From assembly GCA_045533625.1 (NCBI GenBank), contig JAZSID010000032.1, positions 17,311 through 49,310 on the forward strand: a stretch of DNA of 32,000 nucleotides. Direction: 5' to 3'. The translations under genes and the position numbers were made by a program. Origin of the DNA: Acutalibacteraceae bacterium. Its GTDB lineage: Bacteria; Bacillota; Clostridia; Oscillospirales; Acutalibacteraceae. The notes under the pieces were generated by a model. The model ran no database searches and was not told the origin of the DNA. It was given only the letters and a program-made list of their open reading frames with translations. Every line of letters begins with the position of its first letter. Positions within the stretch are counted from its first letter, which is position 1. Of the stretch, positions 4,854 through 24,230 are shown one piece after another.

Positions 4854-5471
4854 TTAACAGCAACGTATCAGGTCGCCGCCCATGCATTCACAGCAACAGT
4901 CCGCACAGCAGAGACCCGTACAGATATCGCAGCCGTCACAACCGCAGGGGTCACAGCAACCGTTGTTTGTGTTCGTGTTTCTTTCCTGACGGTAATGACC
5001 CTTCTTTTCTCTGTTGAGCTGTTTGAATGCCGCAGTATATTCAGGATTCTGCGGTTCCATATTGTGGGCACGCTCAAAGCTTTCTGCCGCACTTTCAAGC
5101 CATCCGCGACGGTGCTGGATTGTACCTTTGAGGTAAAACCATTCGGCATTACGGCGCTGGTGCGGAATTCCGTCAAGGAGCATTTCAGCGTCATCGATTC
5201 TTCCGCTGTTGAGTTTTGCCCTTATATCACCGAATTCGGATGTACCTTCGGTTGTGTTTGCCTCGTAAGTATACTGAGTGTTTGTATTTGCATATGTGTT
5301 GCTTCGGTTTTTATTCCCGAAGTTCATCACAATTGTATCATAAGCCGCATTGAGTTCATCCATTTTCTGATAATCGCTGTTATGGATACGTGCAAGTTCT
5401 CTGTATGCTTTTTTGACTTCATCAAGGCTTGCACCCTGTTCAAGACCGAGAACCTCATACGGATTTCTCAT
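4854..5471 (-). CDS. J-like domain / TPR protein with a C-terminal cysteine string
   Basis: 205 aa. NPYEVLGLEQGASLDEVKKAYRELARIHNSD...LNAAYDTI is J-domain helix I-III architecture, with HNSD in place of HPD. The central EWFYLKGTIQHRRGWLESAAESFERAHNMEPQNPEY is TPR-like. The last 34 residues contain 14 Cys. Confidence 0.85.
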   Translation of the reverse strand: MRNPYEVLGLEQGASLDEVKKAYRELARIHNSDYQKMDELNAAYDTIVMNFGNKNRSNTYANTNTQYTYEANTTEGTSEFGDIRAKLNSGRIDDAEMLLDGIPHQRRNAEWFYLKGTIQHRRGWLESAAESFERAHNMEPQNPEYTAAFKQLNREKKGHYRQERNTNTNNGCCDPCGCDGCDICTGLCCADCCCECMGGDLIRCC

Positions 5472-6321
5472 CTTCTGCGCCTCCTTTTTTCAACACTTTC
5501 TGTGTGACTGAATAAACTCCGTCATAAAGTACATTGGTTAATATATCATCAAATCGAAAAATTTTCAATCTTTTATAAAAAATAATCGCTTCGCCGATTG
5601 TAAGATTCATCATTTCTTCGCAATATTCCGTGAAATTTTCGTCACCTGCGCGTTTTTTCAACGGGTTGAAACTGCCGTCTTTGATATCGTCCCCACAATC
5701 ATTGACGGCATCCGTGATATAAACCCACCTGCCGACCATATAGCCGAACTTTTTTAGCGATTCTTTATCTTCACATTCAATATTATGTACAAGAAGTTCG
5801 GAAAGCATCACAGCACTCGGATCAGCGGCTTCGTCAAGATTTCCGTTACGCTTTTCAATTTCCTGCTGACGTGCCATCTGCTGTTCGAGCACCTTGCTGA
5901 CTTCGCCCGTCCTTCTGCAAGCTTTTTTGTAAAGGTGTTTTGCATACGGCATAACAAGTCTGCAAAGGAATCTTTTGAAAAATCCGCTGTCCTGAATATT
6001 ATCGCACAGCTTATGGTACATCATAAGAATTGTGACATCCGCCGTGTATGCGATGTCCTCGTTATCGCGGTTGCAGTCAAGACATTTTTTTGCAGGGTTA
6101 AAAGAACAGTGTGACTGTTTAAATCCGGGGCAACTGCTTCGCACAGCCATTCTTACCATTGCAAAAAACGTAAAATCATAGGAGAGAATGAAACGTGGAA
6201 TAAATCCGTAACGCTTGCCGAGTGCCTTGCAAAGAGTACAGTATACGCCCTTATAAAGCTCATAGTCTTTGAACTTCATTTCAGGTTTATGCGCTCTTAT
6301 ATAGCCTAACACTTCATTCAC
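5455..6321 (-). CDS. DUF5685-family protein
   Basis: 288 aa. The N-terminus LGYIRAHKPEMKFKDYELYKGVYCTLCKALGKRYGFIPRFILSYDFTFFAMV matches my recollection of the DUF5685 signature (..GY..P....L...E...Y...YC.LC..L....G...R..L.YD). It overlaps the downstream J-like gene by 17 nt. Confidence 0.75.
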   Translation of the reverse strand: MNEVLGYIRAHKPEMKFKDYELYKGVYCTLCKALGKRYGFIPRFILSYDFTFFAMVRMAVRSSCPGFKQSHCSFNPAKKCLDCNRDNEDIAYTADVTILMMYHKLCDNIQDSGFFKRFLCRLVMPYAKHLYKKACRRTGEVSKVLEQQMARQQEIEKRNGNLDEAADPSAVMLSELLVHNIECEDKESLKKFGYMVGRWVYITDAVNDCGDDIKDGSFNPLKKRAGDENFTEYCEEMMNLTIGEAIIFYKRLKIFRFDDILTNVLYDGVYSVTQKVLKKGGAEDEKSV

Positions 6322-16457: not shown

Positions 16458-17785
16458 TATCTGGCCTCACCAAGCAAATCATATTCATCGAAATCGAAAA
16501 TTCTTACGTCAGCAAAATCGCCGATTTCAAGATTCTTTGCACTTGTAAATTTAACAACGGAATCAATTTCGGGAGCATCCATATAAGTTCTGCCTATGTA
16601 GCTGTCTGTATAAGAATCATACTCCTCAACAATTGTCTTATATGTATTTCCGATCTTTGCGTTGTTCTTTTCTTCCATAATCGCGAGCTGATCCTGCATA
16701 ATTATATCGCCGCGGTTCATTTTCACGTCGTCCTCAAGCTGGTCGTCCATATCGTAAGCAGGCGTACCCTCCTGAGCTGAGAAAGAGAAGCAGCCAAGGC
16801 GGTCAAATTCGATTTCATTGACGAATGTTGCAAGGTCTTCGAAAGCTTCGTCATCCTCGCCCGGGAAGCCGACGATGAAGGTTGTGCGGATAACAACATC
16901 GGGAATTTCGGTTCTCAGCTTTTCGATTGTATTTCTTATGTCATCGCTTGTACCTCTGCGGTTCATCGCTTTGAGGATTCTGTCATTAGCGTGCTGAAGA
17001 GGAAGATCGATATAATTAACAATCTTTTCCTGATTTTTGATTGTTGCAATAAGCTCGTCCGTAATTCTGTCGGGATAACAATAGAGAAGTCTTATCCATT
17101 CGATTCCGTCGATTCCGCAGAGTTCATTAAGAAGCTCGGGAAGCTTGAGCTCACCGTAAAGATCAAGACCATAGCTCGTTGTATCCTGTGCGATAACAAT
17201 AAGCTCCTTTACGCCGACTTCTGCAAGCTGCTTTGCCTCATCAATGATGATTTCCATCTTACGCCTTCGCATATCGCCTCTGATTGTCGGAATTGAACAG
17301 TAAGTACATCTGTTTGAACAACCGTCAGCTATCTTCAGATATGCCCAATGCTCAGGGGTTGTGAGGATACGCTGACCGTCAAGGGGTAACTCAGACTGCG
17401 GCGGGAAGCTTTCTACCAGCTCGGCTGTAGACATAACCTCATCAATCACATCAAGGATTTTTCCGTTTGCGCCGATACCGATTACTGCATCAACCTCGGG
17501 AATTTCCTTTGCAATTTCTTCCTTGTGGCGCTGAGCGAGGCAACCCGTAACGATAATCTTTCTTACGATGCCTTCATTTTTAAGCTCAACTGTATCGAGG
17601 ATATTTTCAATTGCTTCCTTTTTGGCATCGTCAATGAAACCGCAGGTATTAATAATCACAACATCGCAACCGTCAACATAGTCAACAATCGTATGACCTG
17701 CTTCATCAATAAGAGCCAGCATACGCTCGGCATCGACCTGATTTTTCGGACAGCCGAGAGATATCAAACCTATCTGATAACCCAT
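16457..17785 (-). CDS. rimO: ribosomal protein S12 methylthiotransferase (radical SAM MTTase)
   Basis: 442 aa. It has an N-terminal GCPKNQVDAE domain, a radical-SAM CSNRCTYCSIP motif and a C-terminal TRAM domain. Confidence 0.9.
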   Translation of the reverse strand: MGYQIGLISLGCPKNQVDAERMLALIDEAGHTIVDYVDGCDVVIINTCGFIDDAKKEAIENILDTVELKNEGIVRKIIVTGCLAQRHKEEIAKEIPEVDAVIGIGANGKILDVIDEVMSTAELVESFPPQSELPLDGQRILTTPEHWAYLKIADGCSNRCTYCSIPTIRGDMRRRKMEIIIDEAKQLAEVGVKELIVIAQDTTSYGLDLYGELKLPELLNELCGIDGIEWIRLLYCYPDRITDELIATIKNQEKIVNYIDLPLQHANDRILKAMNRRGTSDDIRNTIEKLRTEIPDVVIRTTFIVGFPGEDDEAFEDLATFVNEIEFDRLGCFSFSAQEGTPAYDMDDQLEDDVKMNRGDIIMQDQLAIMEEKNNAKIGNTYKTIVEEYDSYTDSYIGRTYMDAPEIDSVVKFTSAKNLEIGDFADVRIFDFDEYDLLGEAR

Positions 17786-17794
17786 AATATCACC

Positions 17795-18427
17795 TTAATA
17801 TTCTTCAAAATATTCGTCTGACGAAAATTCCCTCATAGCCTGACGGATATCCCCGAAAGAATAGCCCAGACGTACGAGCGCGGCAACAACCTTTTGCCGA
17901 GATTTGTCGTCAACTAATTTATTATAATATTTTTTTTGAATAATATCAACTATTGTTTGAATATTATCTGTATCATTTTCATTTTCGTACTCTTCGAGCA
18001 CTTCATTTATAGTTTCCGAGGCTATTCCTCGCCTGAAAAGTTCACTTTTTACACGGTTTTTTCCGTATTTTTTTCTTTCAAACAACTCACGGGTAAGATT
18101 TTCGGCATAACGACGGTCATTCACAAGTCCCAAATCAAGGAGTTTTTCAACTGCAGTATCAACCGAATTTTCGTCATACTTCCTTGAAAGCTTGTTACGA
18201 AGCTCCCTTTCGGAATGGTCGCGAAGATCAAGGCTGAACATTGCGCTGTTAAAAGCAAGGCGGGAGCCTGCCGCCTCTTTGAAGGCAGCAAGGTTCCCGT
18301 CGTCAATTTCGTCACCTGAAATATAGCCTGATGAAAACCAGAAATCTTCATCGACCGTCAGCAGGTATTCGCCGTCAATATGAATATGTATCTTTGTGCC
18401 TTTTCCTTGTTTAGCCGTAATTTTCAT
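17795..18427 (-). CDS. recX: RecX regulatory protein
   Basis: 210 aa. It lies directly after recA, and its ATG shares one nt with the recA TAA. RecX-type helical repeats are present (ELRNKLSRKY...VEKLLDLGLVNDRRYAENL...ELFRRGI). Confidence 0.85.
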   Translation of the reverse strand: MKITAKQGKGTKIHIHIDGEYLLTVDEDFWFSSGYISGDEIDDGNLAAFKEAAGSRLAFNSAMFSLDLRDHSERELRNKLSRKYDENSVDTAVEKLLDLGLVNDRRYAENLTRELFERKKYGKNRVKSELFRRGIASETINEVLEEYENENDTDNIQTIVDIIQKKYYNKLVDDKSRQKVVAALVRLGYSFGDIRQAMREFSSDEYFEEY

Positions 18428-19551
18428 TAATCATCAACCGCTATATCAAGCTTAGCCTTTGCAGATGCTTTTGTTACGGGGGCTGCTGGAGCCGCAGGAG
18501 CAACAGGTGCCGCAGGCATTACAGGCTTTACGCCTTTCTTTGAAGAAGCTTTTCCCATCTGTGCAAGCTTGTCCATATTTTCTCTGATCTTCTGCTCGAG
18601 TTCAGCCATAAGCTCAGGATCGTTTTTGATAAGTTCTTTAACGTTATCTCTGCCCTGACCGAGTCTTGTTTCACCGTAGGAGAACCAAGCACCACTCTTG
18701 TTGATTATGTCAAGAGAAACTGCAATATCAAGAATTTCGCCGACTTTCGAGATTCCTTCGCCGAACATAATATCAAATTCAGCCTCTTTGAACGGAGGAG
18801 CAACCTTGTTTTTAACAATCTTTACTCTTGTTCTTGCTCCGATGAATTCACTGCCTGAAGCTTTGAGAGCTTCAACCTTGCGGACATCCATTCGCATTGA
18901 AGCATAGAACTTGAGTGCACGTCCACCCGTTGTTGTTTCAGGGTTACCGTACATAACACCAATCTTCTCACGGAGCTGATTAATAAATATTATAATAGTA
19001 TTAGACTTGTTGATTGCACCTGCAAGCTTTCTTAAAGCCTGTGACATAAGTCTTGCGTGCTGACCGACGTGTGAATCGCCCATTTCGCCTTCGATTTCAG
19101 ATCTCGGTACAAGAGCTGCAACAGAGTCAACAATAACAATATCAATAGCACCCGAACGTACAAGCGCTTCTGTAATTTCGAGTGCCTGCTCACCGTTATC
19201 CGGCTGAGCAACAAGAAGAGAATCAACATCTACGCCAAGGTTAGCCGCATAAACGGGATCAAGAGCGTGTTCAGCATCGATGAAAGCTGCCTCGCCGCCT
19301 GCCTTCTGTGCCTCAGCGACAGCGTGAAGAGCAAGAGTTGTTTTACCTGAAGATTCAGGTCCGTATATTTCAATAATTCGTCCTTTTGGAAGACCGCCGA
19401 TACCTGTTGCAACGTCAAGTGAGAGTGAACCCGTTGAAATTGCTTCAACCGTCATACCTGCATTCTGACCAAGACGCATAACTGTTCCTTTACCGTACTG
19501 CTTTTCAAGCTGCGCAATTGCGGTTTCCAATGCCTTTTGTTTATCTGCCAT
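18427..19551 (-). CDS. recA: recombinase RecA
   Basis: 374 aa. It has Walker [10 protein letters not shown] plus [23 protein letters not shown] and [40 protein letters not shown] at 19559-19563. Confidence 0.98.
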
Positions 19552-19563
19552 AGTAATACCTCC

Positions 19564-19831
19564 GTAGGGTGGCGGTAATAATCCGAACCATGTTTTTTAT
19601 CGGATGATTTCCGCCATTTCTTTGTTAAAATACTCGCCAATCCGCAAGGATTGGCTGCGTTTTTGCCTTGAACTGCCAAAAATCCTCTCGATAAAAAATC
19701 TTCGACCTGAAAGCTGAGGATTTTAAGATGATTTTTGGATATTGAGAGTACCGATAGGCTGACGCCTTTCAAACCCAAAAAGCGCCGAAAACTCGCTCTC
19801 AGGCAGGTTTGGATTACTACCGTCACCCTAC
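19564..19831 (-). other. 268-bp element bounded by 21-bp inverted repeats within the recA 5' leader (candidate cis-regulatory RNA or MITE-like insertion)
   Basis: 19564-19584 (GTAGGGTGGCGGTAATAATCC) is complementary to 19811-19831 (GGATTACTACCGTCACCCTAC) at 19 of 21 positions. Internal hairpins are GCCAATCC-GCAA-GGATTGGC (19636-19655) and AAAATCCTC...GAGGATTTT (19679-19687 with 19716-19724). Confidence 0.55.
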
Positions 19832-19845
19832 CGTACAAATGTTCG
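19832..19845 (-). promoter_or_regulatory. candidate LexA/DinR operator (Cheo box)
   Basis: The minus strand reads CGAACATTTGTACG. The Gram-positive consensus is CGAAC-N4-GTTCG, so there is one mismatch. It lies 8 nt downstream of the recA -10 hexamer. Confidence 0.5.
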
Positions 19846-19853
19846 ATGAATGT

Positions 19854-19882
19854 ATTATACATTAAGCAAAAGAAAAAATCAA
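19854..19882 (-). promoter_or_regulatory. recA sigma-A-type promoter TTGATT-17-TATAAT
   Basis: Read on the reverse strand: -35 at 19877-19882 and -10 at 19854-19859. Confidence 0.55.
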
Positions 19883-20010: not shown

Positions 20011-20199
20011 ATGGCAAAATGCGAATTCTGCGGCAAAGGTGTTTCTTTCGGTATTCAGGTTTCTCACTCACACAGACGTTCAAACAGAACATGGAAGCCG
20101 AACATTAAGCGTGTTAAGGCAGTTGTTAACGGTTCTCCGCGCAAGGTATATGCTTGCACACGTTGTTTACGTTCAGGTAAGGTAACACGTGCCGTTTAA
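20011..20199 (+). CDS. rpmB: 50S ribosomal protein L28
   Basis: Start re-called to the ATG at 20011 (MAKCEFCGKGVSFGIQVSHSHRRSNRTWKPNIKRV), with AAGGAGG at 19996-20002. The track ORF starts at a GTG inside the RBS. Confidence 0.95.
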   Translation: MAKCEFCGKGVSFGIQVSHSHRRSNRTWKPNIKRVKAVVNGSPRKVYACTRCLRSGKVTRAV

Positions 20200-24028: not shown

Positions 24029-24230
24029 ACCGTTTTCCGTCACCAAAAAATTCATATCTTCGGGAGACGAAACGTCTCCCCTACAGACACGCCTGAAGCT
24101 GTTTCGTAGGGCACGACGTTTACGACGTGCCGATATCCTTCAAAATTTACGGTGTGTCGCAAGCGTCACACCCTACAAGAACAGCTTTAGATATGTATAC
24201 ACACCGAATCGATATGGTGTAAGTTAATTA
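24029..24230. other. GC-rich cluster of 4-5 hairpins in an otherwise AT-rich intergenic region (candidate structured RNA or REP-like element; strand unknown)
   Basis: H1 is GGGAGACG-AAA-CGTCTCCC (24062-24080). A long-range stem pairs AAGCTGTT/GTAGGG (24096-24111) with CCCTAC/AACAGCTT (24171-24187), enclosing two hairpins (24112-24129 and 24151-24172). A further hairpin is ACACC...GGTGT (about 24202-24221). Confidence 0.45.

Follow-up and report, generated by a model that had tools for sequence, protein, structure and literature searches.

A MITE-like mobile repeat in the recA leader of an Acutalibacteraceae bacterium and the placement of its family just upstream of Shine-Dalgarno sequences

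In the 32,000-nucleotide stretch of DNA analysed here (the window; positions 17,311 to 49,310 of contig JAZSID010000032.1, Acutalibacteraceae bacterium assembly GCA_045533625.1), the promoter and operator of recA are separated from the Shine-Dalgarno (SD) sequence of the gene by an interval bounded by inverted repeats. Is this interval a mobile repeat that the leader tolerates, or is it a structured 5′ untranslated region that modulates recA, the two readings offered by the original prediction? With a probability of about 0.85, we consider it a copy of a ~276-bp non-coding, non-autonomous mobile repeat resembling a MITE (miniature inverted-repeat transposable element), which would sit at recA as a co-transcribed, passive module. 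The insertion reading is supported by further copies in the same genome, by many copies in related genomes and by presence/absence polymorphism at recA itself. The family is new; the kind of element is known. Read in the direction of recA transcription, the locus comprises the following features.

19877-19882, minus strand: recA -35 hexamer TTGATT (consensus scan, 10/12 matches, 17-nt spacer; kept in relatives)
19854-19859, minus strand: recA -10 hexamer TATAAT (consensus scan; kept in relatives)
19832-19845, minus strand: putative LexA (Cheo-type) operator CGAACATTTGTACG, at the same place in 30/30 genus relatives examined
19565-19830, minus strand: inserted repeat, 266 nt, a copy of the ~276-nt family short by about 10 nt in arm A; family boundaries from alignments of 27 and 37 copies and from empty sites in relatives
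19806-19830, minus strand: 5′ terminal inverted repeat (TIR) TAGGGTGACGGTAGTAATCCAAACC, which forms the 5′ strand of closing helix P1 and opens with TA, a possible target duplication
19705-19804, minus strand: arm A, a long imperfect hairpin with tip GGCGUCAGCC; minimum free energy (MFE) folds of 10 copies agree
19593-19698, minus strand: arm B, a long hairpin with tip GCCAAUCC-UUGC-GGAUUGGC (19636-19655), from MFE folds, covariation and a hairpin scan
19570-19616, minus strand: alternative 3′ hairpin, 3′ TIR 19570-19586 with an internal TIR-like copy 19600-19616 (17-nt arms, 88% complementary)
19565-19589, minus strand: 3′ TIR GGTTCGGATTATTACCGCCACCCTA, the 3′ strand of P1, ending 1 nt before the SD
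19559-19563, minus strand: recA SD GGAGG, native and not element-borne, the same TACGGAGGTATTACTATG being present at empty sites
18427-19551, minus strand: recA coding sequence (CDS), 374 aa, from the list of open reading frames (ORFs)

The locus was compared across the genus, where RecA is 77-99% identical to that of the window in 40 of 41 genomes; recA was taken from 40 genomes and its upstream region was read in 30. In 26 of these 30 relatives the element is absent at recA. Most relatives have the LexA box, then 4-6 nt and then directly the SD, i.e., an empty site, which reads CGAACATTTGTACGGTTACGGAGG and variants in relatives with 93-98% RecA identity (for example LexA box, GGTTAC, GGAGG) and CGAACATTTGTACGGTTACGGAGGTATTACTATG in G001, whose RecA is 98% identical. 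The native leader is only ~30 nt long in these empty-site relatives, which directly shows what the original prediction had supposed, namely that excision leaves a normal short recA leader. The same insertion is present in G048, where the 3′ part that lies on its contig differs at only 2 positions from that of the window, and G052 carries an internally deleted remnant of ~110 nt, in which the 5′ third is joined to the last 9 nt. This remnant has the CGCCACCC variant in common with the recA copy, so the window copy, the G048 copy and the G052 remnant descend from one insertion. The polymorphism among relatives, proposed beforehand as a test of mobility, is clear. At the insertion point of G006, which has no element at recA, 8 extra bases are found (TTAAGACGG; ACGGTTAAGACGGTTACGGAGG), which may be all that is left of the element's 5′ end or may have come from a small tandem duplication.

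The window's own assembly, a metagenome-assembled genome (MAG) that is 80% complete in 149 contigs, holds at least six copies of the repeat including that at recA, the others lying on contigs C48, C145 (two), C19 and C96. The C48 copy is 87% identical to the recA copy, and the two C145 copies, C19 and C96 are 76-77% identical to it. When the six copies are aligned with their flanks, all begin with TAGGG and end with CCCTA, similarity is lost outside and the flanks are unrelated. The same-genome search suggested by the original prediction hence returned multiple diverged copies with sharp common ends. Copies are 262-281 nt long and fall into two subfamilies, whose TIRs differ by compensating changes (GGGTGACGGTA/TACCGTCACCC versus GGGAAACAGTA/TACTGTTTCCC). 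No conserved ORF was found in the element: its sole short frame, GTG/ATG-GCGGAAATCATCCGATAA, is lost in subfamily 2, and a small ORF serving translational coupling was rejected as it is not kept between the subfamilies.

Beyond this genome, 11 of 24 relatives in a first genus sample contain 1-9 matches, and a TIR pattern scan allowing up to 3 mismatches found matches in 24 of 57 genus genomes, mostly as pairs ~252 nt apart. Full-length diverged copies also occur in another family of the order, and a pattern scan with one genome per species added at least 80 further loci. Among the matches listed, all are from Acutalibacteraceae, “Clostridia bacterium”, Ca. Fimenecus or Oscillospiraceae MAGs, and the named sources are mostly ruminant and other animal hindguts; judged from these matches, the repeat appears confined to Acutalibacteraceae and related Oscillospirales gut bacteria. 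In total, 119 copies at 94 sites were collected. The family thereby shows three hallmarks of a MITE, i.e., small size without coding capacity, TIRs of 25-26 nt kept across the family, and dispersed copies with presence/absence polymorphism. A blastn search against known plasmid or phage DNA detected no homologous sequence, and we found no published description of this repeat family. Mini derivatives of 56 and 83 nt that keep both ends occur in G060 (contig C16) and G043 (contig C66); the 56-nt form is the 5′ TIR joined to the internal TIR-like copy. In G001 (contig C137, about 925-955 in reverse-complement coordinates of the locus), the SD of a gene for a small membrane protein is immediately preceded by a solo 3′ end of the element, GGTTCGGATTATTACCGTCACCCTA, a remnant that occupies the place usual for the family.

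Comparison of 27, and later of 119, copies places the true ends, TAGGG...CCCTA, at 19565-19830, with the 25-nt TIRs TAGGGTGACGG...CCGCCACCCTA (19830-19565) as termini. The original prediction had described 21-nt arms complementary at 19 of 21 positions. The inverted repeat is real and even longer, 19564-19589 and 19806-19831 being 26-nt arms with 88% complementarity, but its outermost pair does not belong to the element: the G at 19831 and the C at 19564 are recA flank that pairs by chance, so that the element ends one base inside on each side. A flank logo of the 94 unique sites has T at -1 in 54% and A at +1 in 60%, giving T/TA...TA/A (slashes mark the junctions). In G043, a sister-family element is nested inside a copy with the junctions ATCT-TA[GGG...CCC]TA-ACTTT, where intact copies read ATCTTAACTTT. 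The target looks TTAA-like with TA on both sides, and the terminal TA could belong to the element itself or have arisen as a 2-bp duplication.

The promoter and operator of recA lie outside the insertion. The claimed promoter TTGATT-17-TATAAT (19882-19854) holds up in the consensus scan and in its conservation, and both it and the LexA box, the latter previously noted as a Cheo-box-like operator, are the same upstream of recA in all 30 relatives read. TATAAT is followed after 8 nt by the box on the minus strand, the predicted transcription start lies near 19847, and GGAGG (19563-19559) is spaced 7 nt from the recA ATG (19551). The reading of CGAACATTTGTACG as a probable LexA box is supported by its retention in 30/30 relatives, by the presence of a lexA gene in the window's own genome (contig C13) and by a perfect box before a dinB-like gene. 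That box, CGAACAAATGTTCG, lies directly after the -10 region of the dinB-like gene (C17:2417-2431); lexA itself is preceded by a diverged box, GCAAACAAATGTTTGC (C13, ~5420-5560, minus strand upstream), and the SOS box of the genus tolerates GTAC and GTTT half-sites. A consensus scan of the element on the recA strand detected no promoter-like site.

These features suggest how the present leader may have arisen. In the ancestor of this species and of two sampled sister species, the element would have entered a TA dinucleotide in the ~30-nt native leader, downstream of the LexA operator (which overlaps the predicted start of transcription) and separated from the SD by 1 nt. Promoter, operator, SD and CDS would have been left untouched by the insertion. 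Because all four are intact, recA would be expected to be made still from its SOS promoter, now with a leader of ~296 nt. The inserted RNA is predicted to fold alone, its terminal helix rejoining the flanks as a self-contained module with unchanged SD accessibility, and this would account for the tolerance of the insertion ahead of an important gene.

In line with such a module, the whole leader folds at -112.5 kcal/mol (z = -8.3), a stability reached by 0 of 100 dinucleotide shuffles, and the element alone is predicted to form a three-armed structure of -105 kcal/mol. The plan consists of the 25-bp TIR closing helix, arm A (element positions 27-126) and arm B (133-238), and is the same in most of 10 diverged copies according to their MFE folds. 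The 3′ strand of arm B is a degenerate third TIR copy, and the base-pairing positions of the alternative 3′ hairpin place it in competition with P1 and arm B. Nearly every base of the element is paired, in long regular helices with no obvious pocket. The Rfam scan that had been proposed gave no match in the window at the gathering threshold or at E up to 10, the best hit below threshold lying on the opposite strand with 22.7 bits, where the gathering score is 60.

For covariation analysis, 37 copies with mutual identity below 93% were aligned. As RNAalifold on a plain MAFFT alignment gave poor internal structure, the MFE structure of the most complete copy was mapped on the alignment, a procedure that inflates the paired percentage and affects compensatory counts less. 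Changes on both sides are found in 55 of 108 pairs, compared with 23-29 when the partners are slid by 1-3 columns, and double-change cells number 289, compared with 53-66 in the slid controls; 0 of 500 shuffles reach the observed value in either measure. All three helices contribute, with changes on both sides in 20 of 25 pairs of P1 and 21 of 43 pairs of arm A, and several unpaired blocks are nearly invariant across the family. The covariation analysis called for by the original prediction shows that the hairpins matter, as a property of the dispersed family and not of a recA device; RNA function is not shown by covariation. The arms of a long palindrome can also co-evolve, without selection, by intrastrand repair of an extruded hairpin. 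In 30 of the 37 copies the fold of the antisense RNA is at least as good, and within the closing helix G-U is no more frequent than A-C, the two being equal. Inferring the strand under selection from G-U versus A-C and from fold energies was attempted and is not decisive.

At the family level, the placement of the repeat is strongly biased. When the 119 copies were collapsed to 94 unique sites, 42 sites are followed on the same strand, at a distance of 25 nt or less, by an SD and the start codon of an ORF with 60 codons or more, whereas the antisense mirror arrangement occurs at 2 of 94. The expectation is 5.1% from random intergenic TA sites of the window's own genome in random orientation, which gives an enrichment p of about 5e-29, and the orientation split of 42 versus 2 has a p of about 1e-10. 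Distances from element to start are mostly 10-16 nt, the commonest being 13. The 42 sense sites precede 41 different genes, including recA, a MinD-type ATPase gene, tsaD, argR, a mutL-like gene, clpX, clpP, ffh, rpmE, an aspartyl-type tRNA synthetase gene and pth; among these unrelated housekeeping genes no shared pathway or regulon was found. At sites beside gene ends, the orientation looks random, roughly 22 versus 21 in a crude ORF-end test. The preference for the sense orientation just upstream of an SD is statistically solid and unusual, and had escaped the original prediction.

Part of the proximity has a simple source. Many upstream flanks have a -10-like box only 1-8 nt before the element, so leaders in these genomes would be very short and would consist almost entirely of the element; such shortness accounts for some of the SD proximity but not for the orientation. 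Occlusion of the SD was rejected as the source of the orientation bias, as partition-function folding over 36 sites gives equal mean unpaired probabilities of the SD with the element in sense (0.49), with the element inverted (0.475) and with a single TA in its place (0.479). For the recA SD, the predicted unpaired probability is 0.41 with and 0.44 without the element, and the effect of the element on recA is most likely small. Terminator asymmetry is likewise unsupported, the hairpin at the tip of arm B scoring as terminator-like on both strands. The bias reflects either orientation-dependent selection in leaders, via RNA processing or transcription, or strand-specific insertion. In G022 and G006, copies of the two different subfamilies both stand 13 nt upstream of the ATG of the minD-type gene, suggesting either separate insertions at a single site or the exchange of one copy for another.

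Several observations weigh against the mobile-repeat reading. Within-genome copies are only 76-88% identical, which does not point to recent activity of the family. An autonomous element with these TIRs was not detected, there being no TIR pairs 1-3 kb apart in the 57 genomes, and DDE_3 and DDE_Tnp_1_2 are absent from the five genomes searched, including the copy-rich G046, G043, G048 and G052. At recA, the junction has one T fewer (ACGG/TA) than a simple TA duplication of the empty sites sampled would give (ACGGT/TA). Finally, the strong covariation and the site bias exceed what a merely tolerated insertion needs. The failure to find a parent transposon is weak as counter-evidence because MAGs often lose insertion sequence copies, and the recA spacer that holds the insertion point varies between species. 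The single IS4-like gene has other ends, without TAGGG. G052 has a classical IS200, which bears no relation to the element.

The window's own genome encodes five RAYT-like Y1 genes (C31:24965-25468, C53:11556-12035, C20:14901-15362, C95:15918-16358 and C95:2261-2728), one product of which scores 78.6 bits against the NCBIfam REP-associated tyrosine transposase, whose cut-off is 80. Each of the five, and nearly every homolog in the genus, contains an inverted pair of repetitive extragenic palindrome (REP) hairpins inside its CDS, bracketing the HUH motif: GTAGGG plus a hairpin at ~nt 125-140 (encoding ...VG...) and a hairpin plus CCCTAC at ~nt 290-340 (encoding ...PT...). Every paralog has its own hairpin sequence. 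REPs that flank or overlap the ends of a RAYT gene are known; we know of no report of the internal arrangement. The same REPs build at least 25 dispersed REPIN-like repeats of 65-70 nt with GTAGGG...CCCTAC ends. One of 69 nt lies in the window at 24107-24175 on the plus strand (TAGGGCACGACG-TTTA-CGACGTGCC...GGTGTGTCGC-AA-GCGTCACACCCTA), its hairpins matching those in the RAYT-like gene of C31. With these repeats the 276-nt family has only TAGGG/CCCTA in common, the G of GTAG not being kept, and none of the RAYT-like genes looked at is flanked by, or contains, the TIR of this family. A RAYT-like gene is present in 21 of 24 element-positive and 17 of 33 element-negative genomes, counts that come from non-independent genomes.

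Could the interval nevertheless serve recA, or leaders in general? A cis-regulatory RNA dedicated to recA, be it a riboswitch, a thermosensor or a protein-binding leader, would agree with the very stable, conserved fold and with a closing helix that adjoins the SD. Such a device is close to refuted by the absence of the element from recA in 26 of 30 relatives, by its occurrence before at least 41 unrelated genes and by the lack of any Rfam match, and its near-total pairing without an obvious pocket and the unchanged predicted SD accessibility speak against it as well. Of the structured 5′ untranslated region put forward originally, the structure stands, being kept by covariation, and the modulation of recA is not supported, given a dispersed repeat before so many genes and an SD that is equally accessible with the element, with it inverted or without it. 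A broader alternative, possible but doubtful in our view, is that the family is an orientation-dependent RNA module kept in leaders for its benefit to downstream gene expression, as a 5′ stabiliser, a ribosome-binding site (RBS) insulator, or an RNase III or RNase Y processing site, which would explain its retention at recA. The concentration of 45% of sites directly 5′ of an SD where 5% are expected, with almost exclusive sense orientation, the essential, highly expressed genes that follow, the three arms kept by compensatory changes together with nearly invariant unpaired blocks, and the arrival of both subfamilies at one place before minD in different species would all fit. So would the -10-like boxes, which at many sites would make the closing helix the first part of the mRNA, an arrangement known from 5′ stabilisers in Bacillus. 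Against such a benefit stand the equal SD accessibility in sense, antisense and empty constructs and the folding of the antisense strand, which, like the G-U and A-C balance, does not single out a strand under selection; palindrome arms can also co-evolve by repair alone. Moreover, the recA copy is reduced to a remnant in G052 and nearly gone in G006, so that it would be dispensable in both, and about half of the sites lie elsewhere.

The other alternative concerns how the repeat moves rather than what it does: it may be a REPIN-like hairpin moved as single-stranded DNA by RAYT-like Y1 (HUH) transposases instead of a DDE enzyme, the end TAs then being parts of the cleavage sites and not a duplication. 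Strand-specific entry into transiently single-stranded DNA at transcription-unit starts would give the sense-only, SD-proximal pattern. This route, which we regard as tentative and on balance unlikely, draws on the five RAYT-like genes, one of them just below the cut-off, on their GTAGGG-hairpin and hairpin-CCCTAC units that also build the REPIN-like repeats, on the TAGGG/CCCTA ends in common, with a bottom strand that starts TAG followed by an imperfect, REP-like hairpin, and on co-varying stems as expected for structure-recognised single-stranded ends. The absence of a fitting DDE transposase from the genomes searched and the more frequent presence of RAYT-like genes in element-positive genomes, albeit not independent ones, are in its favor, and RAYT-type genes with long flanking TIRs that form repeat families have been described (PMC3733652). 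On the other hand, a T precedes TAGGG in 54% of the sites and a G in just 10%, so that the defining GTAG is not kept, the common motif is only 5 nt and no RAYT gene is flanked by the element. The element is 3-4 times as long as a REPIN and has three arms, with a local hairpin next to the terminal motif at the 3′ end only; the symmetric T/TA...TA/A flanks and the nested insertion fit a 2-bp staggered cut, and the unbiased orientation of copies in 3′ regions argues against a global strand rule. More speculative still, and rather improbable, is that the repeats with TAGGG...CCCTA ends in these Clostridia, the recA copy among them, belong to a single superfamily, which RAYT-like Y1 transposases with a REP pair inside their own genes, on either side of the HUH motif, would move in the form of folded single strands, the 276-nt members landing strand-specifically in single-stranded DNA at transcription-unit starts as a mobile leader cassette between the start and the RBS of housekeeping genes.

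Among known elements, the mobile repeat at recA would be closest in working to Correia elements, closest in phylum to RUP and closest in placement to Neisseria REP2. Correia elements of Neisseria (NEMIS, CREE) are likewise small, non-coding, gene-adjacent and co-transcribed repeats with TIRs of ~26 nt and TA at both ends, and their TIRs pair into a long RNA hairpin. They show no sequence similarity to the present family, belong to another phylum, and are 100-155 nt long with a single hairpin, in contrast to 276 nt and three arms here; a strong sense, SD-proximal bias has, to our knowledge, not been described for them. Among the known effects of Correia elements are cleavage by RNase III, or protection, and the creation of promoters (PMC2649163). 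By analogy, one of these would be the most likely effect on the recA mRNA, although no outward promoter is predicted in the recA element. RUP of Streptococcus pneumoniae, like BOX and SPRITE, is an interspersed repeat of Firmicutes, and its movement is attributed to a TA-duplicating IS630-family transposase that would act in trans (PMC3049150). No matching IS630-type (DDE_3) gene was found in the five genomes searched here (0/5), and the TA flanks, although observed, may belong to the element. Placement is opposite as well: the pneumococcal repeats occur in excess in the spaces between convergent genes (Table 1 of PMC3049150), whereas the present family is concentrated directly upstream of start codons. 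ERIC/YPAL of enterobacteria are also imperfect palindromes in transcribed regions, with orientation-dependent effects on mRNA (cited in PMC3049150), but are ~127 nt long, differ in sequence and have no reported limit to one orientation upstream of an SD.

REP/REPIN-RAYT systems and TIRtrons (TIR-flanked RAYT-type genes) resemble the family in a terminal TAG(GG) beside a hairpin, in co-varying stems and in the several RAYT-like paralogs. In most copies, however, a T precedes TAG and GTAG is not conserved, the element far exceeds about 70-110 nt, is not built of two short inverted REP hairpins and flanks no RAYT gene. Mycobacterial MIRUs lie immediately upstream of genes or between operon genes, in gene orientation, but are 40-100-nt direct-repeat units with small ORFs. 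Neisseria REP2 also lies immediately upstream of genes in gene orientation (PMC3184786); it has its own promoter, RBS and ATG and no TIRs, whereas the recA element brings no RBS. GTAG REPs have been described outside Firmicutes, and their end TAG can give stop codons to upstream genes (PMC3733652).

The recA locus illustrates that a very stable hairpin module of 266 nt can sit between the SOS operator and the RBS of a central repair gene and persist through speciation, which is relevant to the annotation and modelling of SOS regulation in these uncultured gut Clostridia. The more useful result lies at the family level, where a MITE-like repeat stands right before an SD at nearly half of its sites and almost only in gene sense. 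This offers a natural test case for how far a closed RNA structure insulates an RBS and for whether insertion aims at transcription starts. REP/RAYT biology would be extended to Firmicutes if the possible connection to RAYT-like transposases carrying internal REP pairs proved true.

Upstream of recA and divergent from it lies rpmB (ribosomal protein L28; window 20011-20199, plus strand), an arrangement kept in about half of the relatives and rearranged in the rest. A second family of ~281 nt, TAGGGTATAGGAAG...CTTCCTATACCCTA, has TAGGGT...ACCCTA ends and folds at about -106 kcal/mol. One of its copies is nested at a TTAA in the first-family copy of G043 mentioned above (G043:C68:7300-8550, locus positions about 471-751), and a 554-nt composite from the TIR scan proved to be a nested second MITE. 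The window's own genome carries several full or partial copies of this second family, among them C81:3693-3973 and C24:2211-2469.

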